Part shown: piece by piece, positions 3,001 through 52,581 of the stretch
Layout: every line of letters begins with the position of its first letter
Position numbering within the stretch: the stretch's first letter is position 1
Assembly: GCA_964584335.1 (NCBI GenBank)
Contig: CAZOZN010000002.1
Location: 8,025 to 72,024 of the forward strand
Reading direction: 5' to 3'
Source of the DNA: an uncultured archaeon
GTDB taxonomy: Archaea; Aenigmatarchaeota; Aenigmatarchaeia; PWEA01; JAGHBM01
Length of the DNA stretch: 64,000 nucleotides
Position numbers and translations under genes: made by a program
The notes under the pieces: generated by a model
The model's input: only the letters and a program-made list of their open reading frames with translations
What the model was told of the DNA's origin: nothing
Database searches by the model: none

Positions 3001-6000
3001 TTATAATTGGCATTATTGTGAATTGTATTGTTTAGAATAGTAGTGTTTCTGCCTGATTGGCATTGTATCCCATCGTAAAAATCCCTTATTTCGCAGTTCT
3101 TTATTGTATTGTAGTTTGAGCCGTCGCCTGTGTTATCCAATATAATTCCATACTCATGGGAGCCCGCACCATCGCCATCAAAGGTGTTGCCCTGACAGTC
3201 AAAAGTAACACCGTCCTTACCATTGAAATCTATACATGTTCCGTCATATTCCGCGGGTGTGGTTATCAACCTGACTTCATCCCCCGAAGAGGTGTTTCCA
3301 ACAGCCGATTCACAGTCATCACAATCGGTGCACTCAGCTATGTTTGTCACTGTGAATGTTCCTATTGAAGTAGAATTCTGGTTTCCGTAGGTGTTGTTTG
3401 CGTAGAACCTGTAACCAACCGCCTTGTTGAGACAGCCAAAAGGTATCCTCTTTGTTGTATTTGTCCAGTTGCCTGCCTGGAAAGTTGAAGTGCTTACGTT
3501 GGACCATCCGCCGGAGCAGTTGTTTGTTCCGTTCCAGCTGAAGGTATAATTTGAAAGCTCGCTTTCGTCAGTCCACTGCGAATACATCTTAACATAGGTT
3601 CCGGCGTTAGGTCCGGTAACGTTATCGCCGAAGTTCGAATAACTCGGTTTTTCCACATAAGACAGTGTGGTGTTGAAGGTGTATATTTCAGATGTGTTCC
3701 AGTTACCGGATGTGTCATTTGCCCTTACCTGCCAGGCAATCCAAGAACCGACAGTAGAATTAACTACCTTGGTAACATTGGACCAGTCTTCCGTACCGGA
3801 AAAGCCACCGCTTTCGTCGGTCCATGTATCATTCTGCCAACCCGATCCAAGACAATTTGCTCCGTTCCACGTCCCGTTACAAAAACTGAAAATGTATCCG
3901 GAAAGACCGACGTTGTCTGTCCATCTCAGACTGAATTCAACATCCTCGCCAGCTCCCGTAGAATTAGTCGAGTTGTCAAAATACTTGGGCTCCTCTGAGT
4001 CAACAACAGTGTATGTCTGCATTGGCATCGTGTAATTCCAGTTATCGCTGGTGTCATTAGCATACAAGAACCATCCAATGAGAGAGCCTGCTCCGGCAGT
4101 TGCCTGACTAGATACGTTAGACCATCCATAAGTTTTATTCTCAGTGGTGGTGAACATCAAATCGTAGTCAGAGCCTGTTCTGTTAGCATATGAAATTACC
4201 GCGTAATCCATAGAATCATATTTTTCTGCGACAAGAGTTCCCCTATTAATAGATATAGACCTGTCTCTGCCGTAAGTATACCTGTAAAGTCCCACAATAT
4301 TTCTGCAGGACCAACCACCGTCACCTTTGCAGTATCTCATTCTGTAAGGAACGGTATAGTTAACGTGAACTATGTGTATATCGTTGTTTTCATCGATAGC
4401 GATAGAGGAATAACGCCCGACATCGCCTCCTGTATCGATAGCACCACAATCCGGGCTTCCGCCAGAAATTCTACAGTACCTTAAATTGTCGTTTGTTGAA
4501 TCATAATGGCTTATATGAGAAACCCCATTAGGAGAAAGTGCTATCGACGAAAAAGAACCGTAAACATTCGTAGCATGACTGTCAGCGTCCATGCAACTAA
4601 AGCTCATACTATTAAAACCACTTTCCTCGCAATATCTCAAGTTACCGGAACTGGCATTCTGATGGCTTATTATAGAAATCAAATCTCTTCCAATGGCTAT
4701 TGAATTGTAGTAACCAACATTTCCTCCAGATTCAACGTCAGTACAGGACCAAGAGCCCCCATAAAACCTACAATATCTCAGGTCTCTGTTATCTATTTCC
4801 TGGTGTACGATTCTTACCATATCTTTATCTCCGACCGCTATAGAGCAATAGTAACCATCCTGTGTCTCCGAGTCAGGCGAAGAACAGCTCCAGGAACCCC
4901 CAGAGTTGTTGCAGTACCTTAAGTCCCTACTGGTATCATTGTAGTGACATATGTGAAGTACGTCAAATCTGTCTACTGCTATTGAAGAATGCATACCAAC
5001 AACACCTCCCGTCTCCACTGCAGTACAGCTCCAAGAGCCCCCCGAATTATTGCAGTATCTCAGGTCTCTGTTATCAGCATCATAATGGCTTATATGGTAG
5101 ACACCGTTGGAATCCACCGCAATAGAACTGTCATATCCCAAATTATTTGTAGTTTCCACCGTGCCGTTTGTCTGGTCAAAAAACTTTTCAGTATAGTTGG
5201 TCCAGGAACTCGTACCGTTCCACGAGAAAGTGTATGAATCCAGTTCCACGTCATCCTCCCAGAAGGCATAGTGCTTTACGTAATCATTTTGTTCAGGGTA
5301 TGTTCCAGCCGAAGAGTTATCACCCTCTTTTGAATATTTCGGCGGCTCGGAATCTATTGTTGTGGTTGTGGAGGTTGTTGATGTGGTGGAGGTAGTTGAA
5401 GTGGTCGATGTGGTGGAGGTGGTGGAAGTTGTTGAGGTGGAGGTTGAAGTCGAGGTTGATGTCGTGGAGGTGGTGGAGGTTGTGGACGTAGATGTTGAAG
5501 TCGAGGTTGATGTTGTTGAAGAAGCACTGCATATACATTCTTGAAACGGCTGGCAATTATTCTGTACTGGCAACTTACAATCACCAAATCTGCATCCTGA
5601 AACAGTACAGTTTGGTTGATTAACCATACTACAAGAACCGGAAGCACAATAACTCAAAGCTTGACAACTACTGTCACAGTCGTAAATTGTTGTTGTTGTT
5701 GTTGTTGTTTCTACGTCGCATACACAAAATCTCTCTGGAGCGTCATTGCATGGGTCCGTGTCAAATATACATGGCGTGCTGTCGCATGTACCACTGCAAC
5801 CCGGATAACTATCATCCGTACAATACCCCGTATCACAATTCTCATCCATTTTTTGGCAAGCTTCCGCACATTCTTTATCATCCAGAGTCCCGTAATCCCC
5901 CCCGCTTTCCGCATCACCGTACCAGCCGTAGTCGTATGGCTCCATTGTTTTTTTGTTTTTTACCGCGTTATGGAGGTCCAGACGGGATATGTTTATTTCA

Positions 6001-12064: not shown

Positions 12065-12194
12065 GCTGGGATGGCCGAGCGGACCAAGGCGCTAGCCTGG
12101 AAAGCTAGTATGCTTCGGCATGCGAGGGTTCGAAAGTGTATATTTTCTTTTATCAAAAGAGAAAATAATGCTGTAATTCCCTCTCCCAGCGCCA
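12065..12194 (+). tRNA. tRNA-Ser(GGA) with a ~43-nt intron in the T-loop region (about position 59/60); encoded CCA.
   Basis: Acceptor GCTGGGA/TCCCAGC, discriminator G, class-II D-arm GCC-GAGCGGACCAAG-GGC, anticodon stem CTAGC/GCTAG, loop CTGGAAA, variable hairpin ATGC-TTCG-GCAT, T-stem GAGGG. T-loop TTCGAA(A) is then interrupted by 12136-12178 before CCCTC. Confidence 0.75.
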
Positions 12195-29828: not shown

Positions 29829-30049
29829 GCTGGGGTGGCCGAGCCAGGCTAAAGGCGCTGGAGTTCTATACAACGGCGAGACTTGAGTACCTGGTATTGT
29901 CCATCAATCTGGGAATGATCAAATGGCTTGAATCTGACTATGGCGGAGATGATGATGGATGGCTAAGATATCCAGTTCCACGAAAGATGATGTTGATTTT
30001 TTCGCATCAGTTGAATGGAGCGGGGGTTCGAATCCCTCCCCCAGCGCCA
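29829..30049 (+). tRNA. Class-II (Ser-type: 3-bp D-stem, discriminator G) tRNA gene of 221 nt with ~130 nt of intronic insertion. Probably more than one intron. Anticodon not resolved by eye (candidates include TGA).
   Basis: Acceptor GCTGGGG/CCCCAGC with G discriminator and CCA; D-arm GCC-GAGCCAGGCTAAA-GGC; 5' anticodon-stem half CTGGA (29858-29862) and its complement TCCAG at 29971-29975; T-arm GGGGG-TTCGAAT-CCCTC at 30022-30038. Confidence 0.6.
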
Positions 30050-31443: not shown

Positions 31444-32043
31444 ATGAAGATAAAGATAACCAAAAAAAACAATGAAAAAATAGAATTTGAAATTGATAAA
31501 GCAACGCCAGCATTTGCAAATGCACTAAGAAGGGTAATGATGATGGAAGTCCCTGTTCTCGCTATAGATGATGCGAGCTTTAGAAAAAATAATTCACCTT
31601 TATTCGACGAAGTGATTGGACACAGGCTTGGTTTAATACCTTTAAAATTTAAGCCAAGGACGCTGAACAAAATGGGCGATTGTAGCTGTAACGGGGAAGG
31701 TTGTATAAACTGTCAGGTAGTTTTTGTTTTAGACAAAAAAGGTCCTTGTACTGTATACAGCAAAGACCTTAAGAGCACAAACCCAGAAGTAAAACCGCTA
31801 TATGAAAAAATTCCAATAACAAAATTAGGGGAAAACCAAGAACTAAATTTAGAGGCAGTGGCAACCATGGGAACTGGAAAAGAGCACGTAAAATGGAAAG
31901 CATCAAATACTTTTTACAGTTACGATAAAGACAAGTTTAATTTCACAGTTGAAACAATGTCGGGCCTAAGCCCAAAAGAAATAGTAATACAGGGAACAGA
32001 AATATTAGAGAATAAAGCAAAAGAATTAATTAAGTTACTGTAG
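31444..32043 (+). CDS. rpoD: DNA-directed RNA polymerase subunit D (Rpo3). Start taken at ATG 31444 after SD AGGAGGT rather than the ORF-track 31378.
   Basis: ATPAFANALRRVMMMEVPVLAIDDASFRKNNSPLFDEVIGHRLGLIPLKF is the RpoD dimerisation domain; Cys cluster CSCNGEGCINC; canonical S11-rpoD order. Confidence 0.85.
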   Translation: MKIKITKKNNEKIEFEIDKATPAFANALRRVMMMEVPVLAIDDASFRKNNSPLFDEVIGHRLGLIPLKFKPRTLNKMGDCSCNGEGCINCQVVFVLDKKGPCTVYSKDLKSTNPEVKPLYEKIPITKLGENQELNLEAVATMGTGKEHVKWKASNTFYSYDKDKFNFTVETMSGLSPKEIVIQGTEILENKAKELIKLL

Positions 32044-32193
32044 CGGGGGTACCCAAGAAAGCTTTTTGCTTTGGGAATGGTCAAAGGGGCTAGAAGTTAT
32101 GGTCAAGCTTAGGATTGATTTGTTCGACGCTAGGTAAATAGGAAACCTAGTGACTTAGTGTCTTCATGAGTTCGAATCTCATCCCCCGCACCA
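32043..32193 (+). tRNA. Leu-type tRNA (discriminator A, 3-bp D-stem, long variable region) of 151 nt with ~65 nt of extra sequence. Likely an 18-nt insertion in the D-loop plus anticodon-region intron(s). Anticodon not resolved.
   Basis: Acceptor GCGGGGG/CCCCCGC, A, CCA; D-stem CCC...GGG with a loop containing hairpin AAAGC-TTTTT-GCTTT; T-arm TGAG-TTCGAAT-CTCA at 32167-32182; duplicated ATGGTCAAG segments at 32077-32086 and 32099-32107. Confidence 0.5.
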
Positions 32194-35040: not shown

Positions 35041-35163
35041 CCCCGGATAGCTCAGCGGTAGAGCGGTCGGCTGTAGACTCATACTAAAAGTATTAGTTGA
35101 ATAGCAATCGTTCAAAAAGCAGGAACCGACAGGTCCTGTGTTCGAATCACAGTCCGGGGACCA
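35041..35163 (+). tRNA. tRNA-Tyr(GTA) with a 47-nt intron at the canonical anticodon-loop position (37/38); encoded CCA.
   Basis: Acceptor CCCCGGA/TCCGGGG, discriminator A; D-arm GCTC-AGCGGTA-GAGC; anticodon stem GTCGG, loop CTGTAG|intron|A, 3' stem CCGAC; T-arm CTGTG-TTCGAAT-CACAG. Confidence 0.75.
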
Positions 35164-35548: not shown

Positions 35549-35647
35549 GCCCCGGTAGTGTAGCGGTCTAGCATACGGCCCTGTCGGGACCCTCAGTAAA
35601 GTTGCGGTAAGGCTGTGACCCGGGTTCGAATCCCGGCTGGGGCGCCA
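35549..35647 (+). tRNA. Class-I tRNA (99 nt) with a ~23-nt intron in the anticodon loop; best model is tRNA-Asp(GTC).
   Basis: Acceptor GCCCCGG/CTGGGGC (one G-U), G, CCA; D-arm GTGT-AGCGGTCTAGC-ATAC; candidate anticodon stem CGGCC, loop CTGTCG|intron 35587-35609|A, GGCTG; variable TGAC; T-arm CCGGG-TTCGAAT-CCCGG. Confidence 0.5.
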
Positions 35648-35653
35648 AAGATT

Positions 35654-35742
35654 GGGCCTATAGCTCAGCCTGGTAGAGCACCGGCCTTTTAACATTAGAG
35701 GAAAGCCGGGTGTCGAGGGTTCGAATCCCTCTGGGCCCGCCA
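35654..35742 (+). tRNA. tRNA-Lys(TTT) with a 12-nt intron at 37/38.
   Basis: Acceptor GGGCCTA/TGGGCCC, G, CCA; D-arm GCTC-AGCCTGGTA-GAGC; anticodon stem CCGGC, loop CTTTTA|ACATTAGAGGAA|A, GCCGG; variable GTGTC; T-arm GAGGG-TTCGAAT-CCCTC. Confidence 0.65.
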
Positions 35743-43694: not shown

Positions 43695-43853
43695 GGGCCC
43701 ATAGCTCAGCCTGGTAGAGCACTCGGCTCTTAACCGAGTTGTCGAGGGTTCGAATGAGCCTTTCTTCAAAAGAAAGCCTCAAGGGAAAGAACTTGGAAAA
43801 CTCTCTGAGTTTTCCCATGCTTAAATCCTAAGAAAATCCCTCTGGGCCCGCCA
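43695..43853 (+). tRNA. tRNA-Lys(CTT) with an ~82-nt intron in the T-loop (about 59/60).
   Basis: Acceptor GGGCCCA/TGGGCCC, G, CCA; D-arm GCTC-AGCCTGGTA-GAGC; anticodon stem CTCGG, loop CTCTTAA, CCGAG; variable TTGTC; T-stem GAGGG; T-loop TTCGAA(T) interrupted by 43756-43837 before CCCTC. Confidence 0.75.
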
Positions 43854-51029: not shown

Positions 51030-51190
51030 GCTGAGGTGGGAGAGCGGTTTAATCCGGTTGGCTCGAGACCAACTGCATCTTTGATGCACGCAGGTTCAAA
51101 ACAGACCCTTTAGAAAAGTGTCTGTACTTCCAAAAATGTTTGGAAATCTACGATTTCCCAATTGGAACGAGAATCCTGCCCTCAGCGCCA
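51030..51190 (+). tRNA. tRNA-Ser(CGA) with a ~73-nt intron in the T-loop (about 59/60).
   Basis: Acceptor GCTGAGG/CCTCAGC, discriminator G, CCA; class-II D-arm GGA-GAGCGGTTTAA-TCC; anticodon stem GTTGG, loop CTCGAGA, CCAAC; variable hairpin TGCATC-TTTG-ATGCA; T-stem GCAGG; T-loop TTCAAA(A) interrupted by 51102-51174 before CCTGC. Confidence 0.7.
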
Positions 51191-51204
51191 AAAAAGGTTT
51201 TAAA

Positions 51205-51636
51205 ATGAGAAAAACTCCAAAAGTCACAGTAGACATAATTTTAGAGAAGGAAGACAAGATAATACTAGTAAAAAGAGGTATAGAGCCTTGGAAAGGTAAG
51301 CTTGCCTTGCCGGGTGGTCATGTAGAATACGAAGAAAACGTTGAAAATGCAGCAATAAGAGAAACAAAAGAAGAAACAAACCTTAATGTAGAAGTTAAAG
51401 ACATACTTGGAGTATACTCAGAATCAAAGAGGGACCCAAGATACCATGCAATATCAACAGTATTCATAGGTAAAATTATCAATGGTAATTTAGAAGCAGG
51501 TTCTGATGCGAATGATGCAAATTTTTACAATATAAAAAAAATTAAAAAAGAAGATATGTCATTTGACCATTGGAAAATAATAAAAGACTATTTAAAATGG
51601 AAAGAAAATAAAGGCACATATTGGTCTTCGAAATAA
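51205..51636 (+). CDS. NUDIX hydrolase. Start taken at ATG 51205; the ORF-track start 51118 lies inside the tRNA.
   Basis: NUDIX box GGHVEYEENVENAAIRETKEETNL (G-x5-E-x7-REUxEExGU). Confidence 0.75.
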   Translation: MRKTPKVTVDIILEKEDKIILVKRGIEPWKGKLALPGGHVEYEENVENAAIRETKEETNLNVEVKDILGVYSESKRDPRYHAISTVFIGKIINGNLEAGSDANDANFYNIKKIKKEDMSFDHWKIIKDYLKWKENKGTYWSSK

Positions 51637-51666: not shown

Positions 51667-51867
51667 ATGAAGTGTCCAAACAAAGAAATAAACCTTGAAG
51701 AATGTAACTGCAGTTACCCCGGTTGCAGCAGAAAGGGCATTTGCTGTGAGTGTATAAGATACCATAGAAAAATGAGAGAAATCCCAGCATGTTTGTTTCC
51801 AGACGATGTAGAAAAAACATTTGACAGGTCAATAGACAAATTTATTGAGACGCAAAAGCGATGGTAG
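51667..51867 (+). CDS. Small Cys-rich (putative metal-binding) protein; its 3' end overlaps the tRNA-Gly 5' end by 10 nt.
   Basis: 66 aa; [21 protein letters not shown] cluster of 7 Cys plus His. Confidence 0.3.
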
Positions 51868-51931
51868 TCTAATGGTAGGACACCACCCTGCCACGGTGGT
51901 AATCCGGGTTCAAATCCCGGCCTTCGCACCA
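51858..51931 (+). tRNA. tRNA-Gly(GCC), no intron.
   Basis: Acceptor GCGATGG/CCTTCGC (one T-T mismatch), A, CCA; D-arm GTCT-AATGGTA-GGAC; anticodon stem CCACC, loop CTGCCAC, GGTGG; T-arm CCGGG-TTCAAAT-CCCGG. Confidence 0.8.
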
Positions 51932-51947
51932 ATATAATATTCTGGTT

Positions 51948-52412
51948 TTGTTTATGTTCACTAAAAAAATTTATTCTGCTTGGGAAGAAAAACAGATTGA
52001 AAAATACAAAGAAATGAGAGATTTGATTCCCAAAGATTTTAATCTGGCATTGGACGTCGGTGTAGGTCCCGGTTGGTTTGAAGAATTCTTTGGTATGAAT
52101 ATCCTGGGAATTGACATTGACAAAAACTCTGCTGCTGATATAATAGCAAGCGGTGATTTTATTCCAATCAGGGAAAATTCCTTTGATTTTGTTATATGTT
52201 TGGATACTATTCATTTGGTTGGAGGAGAAGAAATTAAAAGAGTTCTTAAGCCCCGGGGTTACTTGTTATTATCACACTTCATAAACAAAGACAACGAAAA
52301 CGAGATAGAAAAAAAGCTTTTAAATATGTTCAAAGAATTTAAATTACTGAAAAGAAAAATAGTAGGTAACAAAGAAAAAGACCTTGCAATTTTGTTTGGG
52401 CCTGTGGTCTAG
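51948..52412 (+). CDS. Small class-I SAM-dependent methyltransferase; its last 15 nt overlap the downstream tRNA.
   Basis: Motif I ALDVGVGPGWF; acidic residue after beta2 (LGIDID); motif-IV-like FDFVICLD. Confidence 0.6.
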   Translation: MFMFTKKIYSAWEEKQIEKYKEMRDLIPKDFNLALDVGVGPGWFEEFFGMNILGIDIDKNSAADIIASGDFIPIRENSFDFVICLDTIHLVGGEEIKRVLKPRGYLLLSHFINKDNENEIEKKLLNMFKEFKLLKRKIVGNKEKDLAILFGPVV

Positions 52413-52571
52413 TGGCTATAGATTGACGTGCATTTTTGTGCGTTTCAGCCAGGACGCCACCTTGACGTAAGCTTTTGCAAAAAGCTTAAGCAAAATAAAA
52501 GCTTTCAAAATGGTGGATATCCCCGGTTCGAGAAAGACCCTTAAGGAAAGAGAATCCGGGCGGGCCCACCA
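52398..52571 (+). tRNA. Intron-rich tRNA (174 nt), apparently three introns: D-arm/anticodon junction, anticodon loop, T-loop. Candidate identity tRNA-Val(GAC).
   Basis: Acceptor GGGCCTG/CGGGCCC (one G-U), A, CCA; D-arm GTCT-AGTGGCTAT-AGAT; candidate anticodon stem CCACC (52449-52453)/GGTGG (52512-52516) with loop start TTGACG; duplicated TTGACGT at 52424-52430 and 52456-52462; T-stem CCCGG; T-loop TTCGA interrupted by ~22 nt before CCGGG. Confidence 0.5.
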
Positions 52572-52581
52572 CTTCTTTTTA

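Follow-up and report, generated by a model that had tools for sequence, protein, structure and literature searches.

We examined a tRNA-Val(GAC) gene interrupted by three blocks of extra sequence, which lies on contig CAZOZN010000002.1 from an uncultured archaeon (assembly GCA_964584335.1), in a stretch of 64,000 nucleotides (nt) that was analyzed as a whole and is called the window here (Table 1). The gene, which begins within the end of an open reading frame (ORF) for a methyltransferase, runs exactly from G1 through the encoded CCA. A preliminary description of the locus had proposed these limits together with about 100 nt of extra sequence, and the three blocks were found to amount to 33+43+22 = 98 nt. 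The acceptor stem (GGGCCTG/CGGGCCC, with A73 and the encoded CCA), the T-stem (CCCGG/CCGGG), and the 5′ half of the D-arm are present in the sequence, as had been recognized. The anticodon, previously read as possibly GAC (Val), is GAC at 52464-52466, and the anticodon arm reads CCACC-UUGACGU-GGUGG once 43 nt are taken out. Along the gene, the order is GGGCCTGTGGTCTAGTGGCTAT (exon 1), AGATTG…CAGCCAG (intron 1), GACGCCACCTTGACG (exon 2), TAAGC…TCAAAA (intron 2), TGGTGGATATCCCCGGTTCGAG (exon 3), AAAGACCCTTAAGGAAAGAGAA (intron 3), and TCCGGGCGGGCCCACCA (exon 4). T-rich tracts, such as the T5 run behind this gene, were also found 3′ of the orthologous tRNA-Val genes.

In archaea, tRNA precursors are cut by the endonuclease EndA at a bulge-helix-bulge (BHB) motif and the exons are then joined by RtcB (PMC4090602, PMC5829648, PMC3239211). 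We scanned every pair of last exon base and last intron base (p,q) of the gene for the BHB geometry, i.e., a central helix of 4 bp, each strand of which is followed on its 3′ side by a 3-nt bulge, with the cut after the second bulge base; the form was called strict if all four central pairs (4/4) were present and each outer helix had at least 2 bp. This revealed six strict (p,q) pairs gene-wide, two of which are the cloverleaf-restoring junctions of introns 1 and 2. At intron 2, the helix UUGA/UCAA is fully paired (4/4), with bulges CGU and AAU and outer helices of 5 bp (the anticodon stem) and 9 bp (in the intron). At intron 1, the central helix GGCT(18-20a)/AGCC is likewise complete (4/4), with bulges AUA and AGG and an internal hairpin. 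Intron 3 showed the relaxed hBH form, in which the T-stem serves as h, the 3′ bulge is AAU, and the central pairs are U54·G, U55-A, and C56-G, followed by a G57xA mismatch. Thus, all three tRNA-Val inserts are archaeal BHB-type introns, of the strict or a recognized relaxed form.

The scan placed the first block at 22/23, inside the D-arm and within the D-stem 3′ strand. The preliminary description had put it after the D-arm, that is, at 26/27, a candidate which we rejected, as a hand check found no BHB there and the resulting D-arm is unlike that of any orthologue. The same description regarded a repeated heptamer, TTGACGT, as flanking the splice sites, with copies at 52424 and 52456. The actual copies occupy 52423-52429 and 52462-52468; the first falls within intron 1, at 4-10 nt beyond its 5′ splice site, where its TT forms a small bulge and its GACG starts the intron hairpin, and the second is the anticodon loop. 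Just one copy touches a splice site. A repeated 7-mer occurred in 46% of shuffles of the tRNA-Val gene, ten copies of TTGACGT were counted window-wide versus 5.2 expected, and homologous introns carry TTGACAC (L012) or CCGACGC (L003/L005/L008) at that place. Since the repeat is at chance level and unconserved, TTGACGT is not a junction motif.

The unspliced gene escaped standard detection: ARAGORN gave no call for it in a window scan that does find three other tRNAs, and no Rfam tRNA match was obtained at the gathering score or, on the local region, at E<=10. Splicing in silico at the BHB-defined sites yielded a 76-nt cloverleaf, which ARAGORN called tRNA-Val(gac). The 174 nt hold all four exons in collinear order, so the gene is neither split nor permuted, and the introns, at 22-43 nt and with no Rfam intron match at E<=10, do not resemble self-splicing group I/II introns. 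A simpler, one-intron fold, which the preliminary description had named as a finding that would overturn its view, was not obtained, as none of 2,739 single-deletion models gave a tRNA call; neither did any of 2,739 models combining removal of intron 2 with one other deletion. These results indicated that all three removals are needed. For unbiased scoring of BHB-like deletion combinations ARAGORN was too permissive, as it made 13,079 calls on such combinations of the Ser(UGA) gene of the window and, for the tRNA-Val gene, placed a false 81-nt "Lys(ctt)" solution, which we rejected, on a level with the true one; it was kept as a sanity check, and the junctions were settled with orthologues.

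Another idea is that the canonical intron alone is removed and that the D and T inserts remain in the tRNA as expansion segments. Nothing speaks for it beyond the fact that splicing is here predicted from sequence, and we give it almost no credence: each insert has a BHB-type motif, the inserts sequester the elbow bases G18/G19 and U54-C56, and close relatives with unchanged exons differ in insert length, from 0 to 96 nt.

Homologous genes were collected in two ways. An exact-match pattern scan ("Val D-arm, 15-45 nt gap, GACG-stem-YTGACG") of species-representative genomes returned six loci, from two Ca. Aenigmatarchaeota metagenome-assembled genomes (MAGs), two unclassified archaeal MAGs (three loci), and one Nitrososphaeria MAG, and the same scan of metagenomes returned six more; the pattern demands a D-region intron, so this sample gives no estimate of how common such genes are. 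Syntenic orthologous loci were reached through homologues of the upstream methyltransferase. One candidate, L017, was rejected because its methyltransferase homologue (37% identical) lacks synteny and is not followed by a tRNA-Val.

At the methyltransferase-then-tRNA-Val(GAC) locus, relatives carry one, two, or three introns. L015 and L019 have a 13-nt canonical intron alone, and their tRNA-Val genes are matched by the Rfam tRNA model at 54.6 and 54.5 bits; L018 has a single D-loop intron; L016 has introns at 15/16 and 37/38; L014 (complete genome CP070662.1, 832,879 bp) has introns at 15/16, 37/38, and 59/60; and L012 shares with the window the combination of 22/23, 37/38, and 59/60. In nonsyntenic genes (L002/L007, L004, and L013), a D-region intron again accompanies introns at 37/38 and 59/60. 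Overall, D-region introns among the relatives occur at 15/16, about 19/20, or 22/23. The three introns that had been proposed for the D region, anticodon loop, and T-loop of the window gene are supported.

The intron-poor orthologues fix the junctions. Where the D-arm and T-loop inserts are absent, they read GGCTATGACG and TTCGAGTCCGGG (…GGCTAT|GACG… and …TTCGAG|TCCGGG, the bar standing at the predicted window junction), i.e., U22 and, from …GGTTCGAGTCCGG…, a T-loop UUCGAGU. This mature T-loop is identical in L015, L016, and L019, the orthologues without a T-loop intron, and exon 1 equals that of L015 and L019 except that acceptor position 6 is T in the window and C in both of them, and that L019 differs at one D-loop base. 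The orthologues therefore settled the ambiguities between G22 and U22 and between A59 and G59 that the sequence alone leaves. Three introns with other junctions, namely, intron 1 at 21/22 (G22, with U13·G22) or 26/27 and intron 3 at 58/59 (T-loop UUCGAAU), could be entertained, as the minimum-free-energy (MFE) fold pairs GUCU(10-13) with GGAC(52452-52455), UUCGAAU is an equally legal T-loop, and ARAGORN also accepts the variants. None of these junctions, however, has a 3-4-3 BHB (scan and hand checks), the orthologues lacking these introns read U22, the orthologues read G59 (TTCGAGT), and all five homologues with an unambiguous junction have U22. We therefore see only a very slight chance that the junctions lie elsewhere than at 22/23, 37/38, and 59/60.

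Two upstream sequences were noted at these loci. In L014, ATAGATTGACACGCACT at 4471-4487, upstream of tRNA-Val (4530-4737), is 16/17 identical to the L012 exon 1/intron 1 junction (0/1000 shuffles) and is followed by a TTTAAATA box about 30 nt before tRNA-Val. In L018, GTGGGTCTAAG at about 858-868, which resembles the tRNA 5′ end, lies at the end of the methyltransferase ORF and precedes the real tRNA by about 20 nt. Their appearance may suggest relics of a replaced 5′ exon.

Comparison with L012 showed how the parts of the gene have diverged. The exons are 75/76 identical, with U6·G to C6-G as the sole change, while 60/107 aligned columns match in the introns (about 56%) and the flanking DNA is 67-74% identical. 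When eleven spliced homologues were arranged as a cloverleaf, 94% of cells were paired and eleven pairs were changed on both sides, a number attained in 0/500 shuffles, and the covariation signal collapsed with partners slid by one to three columns. In L014, for example, G7-C66 is replaced by the compensatory A7-U66. In the introns, the central helix and bulges are conserved, while paired changes occur in the outer helices. The intron 1 helix is retained in the homologous introns of L012 and of the Aenigmatarchaeota loci L003/L005/L008 with a compensatory outer-helix change, the outer pair going from G-C to A-U among the homologues. The outer helix of intron 2 is AAGCTTTTG/TAAAAGCTT in the window and GGCGGAATT/AATTCCGTT in L012, with the pairing kept, and its H′/bulge (TCAA-AA|T) recurs in L012, L013, and L016 with a wholly different, still paired outer helix. 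The register of intron 3 is common to L012, L014, L004, L013, and three further T-loop introns of the window. The exons show purifying selection, and the overall pattern is what a functioning gene with functioning splice motifs would display, rather than a pseudogene.

We weighed these data against the view that the gene is a decaying pseudogene, disabled by the D-arm and T-loop inserts, and that another gene supplies tRNA-Val(GAC). Standard tRNA finders do miss the gene, the intron 3 motif is merely relaxed, and our view of the genome is limited to the window. A pseudogene, though, would not be expected to keep exons 75/76 identical to those of L012 when introns and flanks have diverged, to keep its stems by compensatory changes, or to retain CCA, A73, and the T-run intact. 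Every insert, moreover, is located precisely at a place that allows a BHB-type motif, and L012 and L014 have kept the layout of three inserts, which is also found, independently, in L002/L004/L007 and L013. We consider the chance of decay to be slight, and we hold it highly probable that 52398-52571 is a functional Aenigmatarchaeota (DPANN) tRNA-Val(GAC) gene with a 174-nt precursor and three protein-spliced introns.

That this gene is transcribed and its precursor cut and ligated, and in what order its introns leave, we infer from the pathway established for archaea. EndA would cut at the two 3-nt bulges flanking the 4-bp helix of each intron. Intron 2 would present a textbook strict BHB on the anticodon stem; in intron 1, the D-loop bases G18 G19 C20 U20a would form the central helix with AGCC near the intron 3′ end; and in intron 3, U54 U55 C56 would pair with GAG near its 3′ end, adjoining the T-stem, which would leave a proper 3′ bulge and a mere loop at the 5′ site (relaxed hBH). 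As introns 1 and 3 pair with the elbow bases G18/G19 and U54-C56, folding into the L-shape would presumably have to wait until both are removed. An RtcB-type ligase would join the four exons into the 76-nt tRNA, whose ends would be processed by RNase P and by 3′ trimming, with the CCA already encoded.

Several observations weigh against a functional gene spliced in this way. The outer helices of intron 1 have just 2 bp each, and intron 3 has its 5′ site in a loop, with no outer helix and no defined 5′ bulge. Because of this relaxed hBH, an enzyme of broad specificity would be needed; EndA of the strict α4 and α′2 kinds is not expected to cut intron 3, and the enzymes reported from DPANN archaea are α4, (αβ)2, and ε2 (PMC5829648). 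Neither EndA nor the ligase was seen in the DNA covered: a crude tblastn search with an approximate Methanocaldococcus jannaschii EndA query, a weak test, gave no match in the window or the loci. The count of Val(GAC) genes covers the 64-kb window. In the nearest-neighbor model, the BHB conformer, at -42.5 kcal/mol, lies well above the MFE fold (-58.6), in which GUCU(10-13) pairs with GGAC instead. Such energies penalize 3-nt bulges, and did so for the textbook intron 2 as well, and the constraint run left the pairs unenforced; thus, nearest-neighbor folding says nothing either way on the BHB conformers. As to the enzyme, higher numbers of disrupted tRNA genes in DPANN archaea have been associated with α4 enzymes that carry an L3 loop (PMC5829648), and a functional three-intron gene predicts that the splicing endonuclease of this lineage accepts relaxed hBH substrates.

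Each of the sites 22/23, 37/38, and 59/60 is a catalogued archaeal intron site (PMC4090602), and three introns are the published maximum for an archaeal tRNA gene (PMC8450103, PMC4033280, PMC3239211). Three-intron tRNAs, described as rare in the preliminary account, form an established class (PMC8450103, PMC4033280) and number three in the window, so that "rare" needs qualifying. A close likeness is to the Thermoproteales (Pyrobaculum, Thermofilum, and Caldivirga), for which up to three BHB introns per gene are reported (Sugahara 2007/2008, as cited in PMC4033280; PMC8450103); there, too, one canonical intron is combined with two noncanonical ones, related introns occur across tRNA genes, and ordinary finders miss the genes. 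Whereas these are crenarchaea with an (αβ)2 endonuclease, the host of the window is a low-GC DPANN archaeon with a split rpoB: the window has a GC content of 35% and encodes EF-1α, SecY, and an RNA polymerase with a split B subunit (B″/B′). The best named relatives of its EF-1α are Ca. Aenigmatarchaeota MAGs (up to 80% identity), and judged by this protein the host belongs to the Aenigmatarchaeota. The contig also occurs in Logan run SRR15425353.

There are further parallels. The pre-tRNA-Cys(GCA) of ARMAN-2 (Ca. Micrarchaeum acidiphilum) has a 13-nt 59/60 relaxed hBH intron that is cleaved in vitro by the ε2 EndA (PMC3239211), an enzyme type reported solely from the Micrarchaeum/Mancarchaeum lineage (PMC5829648). 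It agrees with intron 3 in position, motif class, and superphylum and is similar in size, but it interrupts another tRNA and the three-intron layout is not described for it. Methanopyrus kandleri pre-tRNA-Glu(UUC) (PMC5829648) shares the pairing of a D-region intron with one at 37/38, but it has two introns, of which the D-loop one is a relaxed HBh′ motif, while in the window the D-arm intron has a 3-4-3 core and the T-loop one is relaxed. The same three-arm spread of three BHB-dependent introns is known from a eukaryotic red alga, with an independent origin. The three-intron layout of tRNA-Val is thus already known in other archaea, the mechanism is ordinary, and nothing new is revealed in it. 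Our literature search found no paper on tRNA introns in Aenigmatarchaeota, and the present data extend the three-intron architecture and the apparent spread of introns from the Thermoproteales to a DPANN phylum. The main interest of the gene is as a member of a very intron-rich, fast-changing DPANN tRNA gene set.

The other tRNA genes of the window were inventoried by hand, with the BHB script and ARAGORN on the spliced sequences as a check; in Tyr, Asp, and Lys(UUU), the one intron of each gene was placed by visual inspection of length and sequence, outside the script check. As summarized in Table 1, the window holds 10 tRNA genes, 9 of them interrupted, with 15 introns in total and three three-intron genes.

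Table 1. tRNA genes and associated features of the window
Feature	Coordinates	Strand	Description
tRNA-Val(GAC), 174 nt	52398-52571	+	Three introns
Exon 1, 22 nt	52398-52419	+	Acceptor 5′ strand GGGCCTG, U8 G9, D-stem 5′ strand GTCT, D-loop AGTGGCTA, U22
Intron 1, 33 nt, position 22/23	52420-52452	+	BHB scan; 3-4-3 core
Exon 2, 15 nt	52453-52467	+	GAC (23-25), G26, anticodon stem CCACC, loop UUGACG
Intron 2, 43 nt, canonical 37/38	52468-52510	+	BHB scan; strict hBHBh′
Exon 3, 22 nt	52511-52532	+	U38, anticodon stem GGTGG, variable loop ATATC, T-stem CCCGG, T-loop UUCGAG (54-59)
Intron 3, 22 nt, T-loop 59/60	52533-52554	+	Relaxed hBH, 3/4 central pairs
Exon 4, 17 nt	52555-52571	+	U60, T-stem CCGGG, acceptor 3′ strand CGGGCCC, discriminator A73, CCA
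T5 run	52576-52580	+	Likely archaeal transcription stop, judged from sequence; 5 nt past CCA
S-adenosylmethionine (SAM)-dependent methyltransferase ORF (Methyltransf_11)	51954-52412	+	Ends GPVV*
tRNA-Ser(GGA)	12065-12194	+	One T-loop 59/60 intron, 12135-12177
tRNA-Ser(UGA), 221 nt	29829-30049	+	Three introns: 29862-29880 at 30/31 (strict BHB); 29888-29969 at 37/38, 82 nt; variable-arm insert of about 29-30 nt, 29987-30015 or 29981-30010 (ambiguous boundary); missed by ARAGORN and Rfam
tRNA-Leu(UAG), 151 nt	32043-32193	+	Three introns: 32058-32077 (15/16, helix CCCA/TGGG); 32094-32106 (30/31, 13 nt); 32114-32144 (37/38); missed by ARAGORN and Rfam
tRNA-Tyr(GUA)	35041-35160		One intron
tRNA-Asp(GUC)	35549-35647		One intron
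tRNA-Lys(UUU)	35654-35742	+	One intron
tRNA-Lys(CUU)	43695-43853	+	One T-loop 59/60 intron, 43755-43836; partial Rfam match, 33 bits
tRNA-Ser(CGA)	51030-51190	+	One T-loop 59/60 intron, 51101-51173
tRNA-Gly(GCC)	51858-51931		No intron

Once spliced, the two other three-intron genes were called tRNA-Ser(tga) and tRNA-Leu(tag). ARAGORN called 35654-35742 Arg(ccg), and the anticodon arm of this gene, CCGGC-CTTTTAA-[12 nt]-GCCGG, reads Lys(UUU) by eye rather than by splicing; the Val(GAC) orthologues of L015 (717-805) and L019 (589-677) were mislabeled Ser(tga). ARAGORN and Rfam both missed Val(GAC) and at least four other tRNA genes of the window, with Lys(CUU) partly seen by Rfam. Genomes of this lineage would consequently seem to be without tRNA-Val(GAC), Ser(UGA, GGA, and CGA), and Leu(UAG), which could be misread as incompleteness or host dependence.

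T-loop introns recur among these genes. A dedicated scan for 59/60 introns found exactly four in the window and others in the Aenigmatarchaeota locus L005 and in L012, L014, L015, and L017. The relaxed 3′ junction …GARAA|T adjoining the T-stem is common to the T-loop introns of Ser(GGA), Lys(CUU), and Ser(CGA), the last of which has exons 93% identical in L012. The L014 Val T-loop intron (4653-4725) is 42/45 identical to the Lys(CUU) intron of the window over their 5′ parts, with an alignment score of 73 versus 13±2 for shuffles (0/500), and intron 3 of the window tRNA-Val matches the Ser(CGA) intron at 14/16 positions at the same offset (0/500 shuffles). These data suggest that T-loop introns may have spread between different tRNA genes, as in the Thermoproteales, where the likeness of introns across tRNAs has been described as the outcome of intron transposition (Fujishima 2010, as cited in PMC4033280). 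A shared layout was also seen for the 15/16 introns of the window Leu gene and the L014 Val gene, both of which have, in this order, a hairpin, a mimic of the D-stem 3′ strand (TGGG for CCCA and GGAC for GTCT), and AA|T.

The published extreme of intron load is Pyrobaculum calidifontis, with 71 introns in 46 genes (PMC8450103). We tentatively propose, at somewhat less than even odds, that this Aenigmatarchaeota lineage has independently acquired a load of tRNA introns that matches the Thermoproteales record; the apparently mobile 59/60 relaxed-hBH family, very fast gain and loss between close relatives, and the 5′ exon replacement suggested by the relics in L014 and L018 appear to be possible drivers. 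If so, a broad-specificity endonuclease would be required, of a type not yet characterized in the phylum. The orthologous Val locus, with its one, two, or three introns, provides a natural series for the gain and loss of BHB introns.

Intron presence seems to vary at the neighboring tRNA-Gly locus too. The Gly(GCC) orthologue in L012 (616-742) measures 127 nt (Rfam, 46 bits) versus the intron-less 51858-51931 of the window, and in L015 a tRNA with a 56-nt T-loop intron (85-223) stands at the place of the window's tRNA-Gly.

The overlap of the tRNA-Val 5′ end with the methyltransferase ORF, to which the preliminary description had drawn attention, is real and spans 15 nt. The first 15 nt of the tRNA gene double as the last five codons (GPVV*) of the ORF, whose stop is the TAG of GGTCTAGTGG (52410-52412), at tRNA positions 13-15. 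The same ending inside tRNA-Val was found in L012 (1245-1259), L015 (717-731), and L019 (589-603), while in L014, L016, and L018 the ORF stops on its own, upstream of the tRNA. An RNase P cut at the tRNA 5′ end would strip the stop codon from any co-transcript. At the tRNA-Ser(CGA) gene, the longest NUDIX ORF (51118-51636, +, with GTG at 51118) begins inside the tRNA, as does a 166-amino-acid gene call in L001; the true NUDIX start is likely the ATG at 51206.

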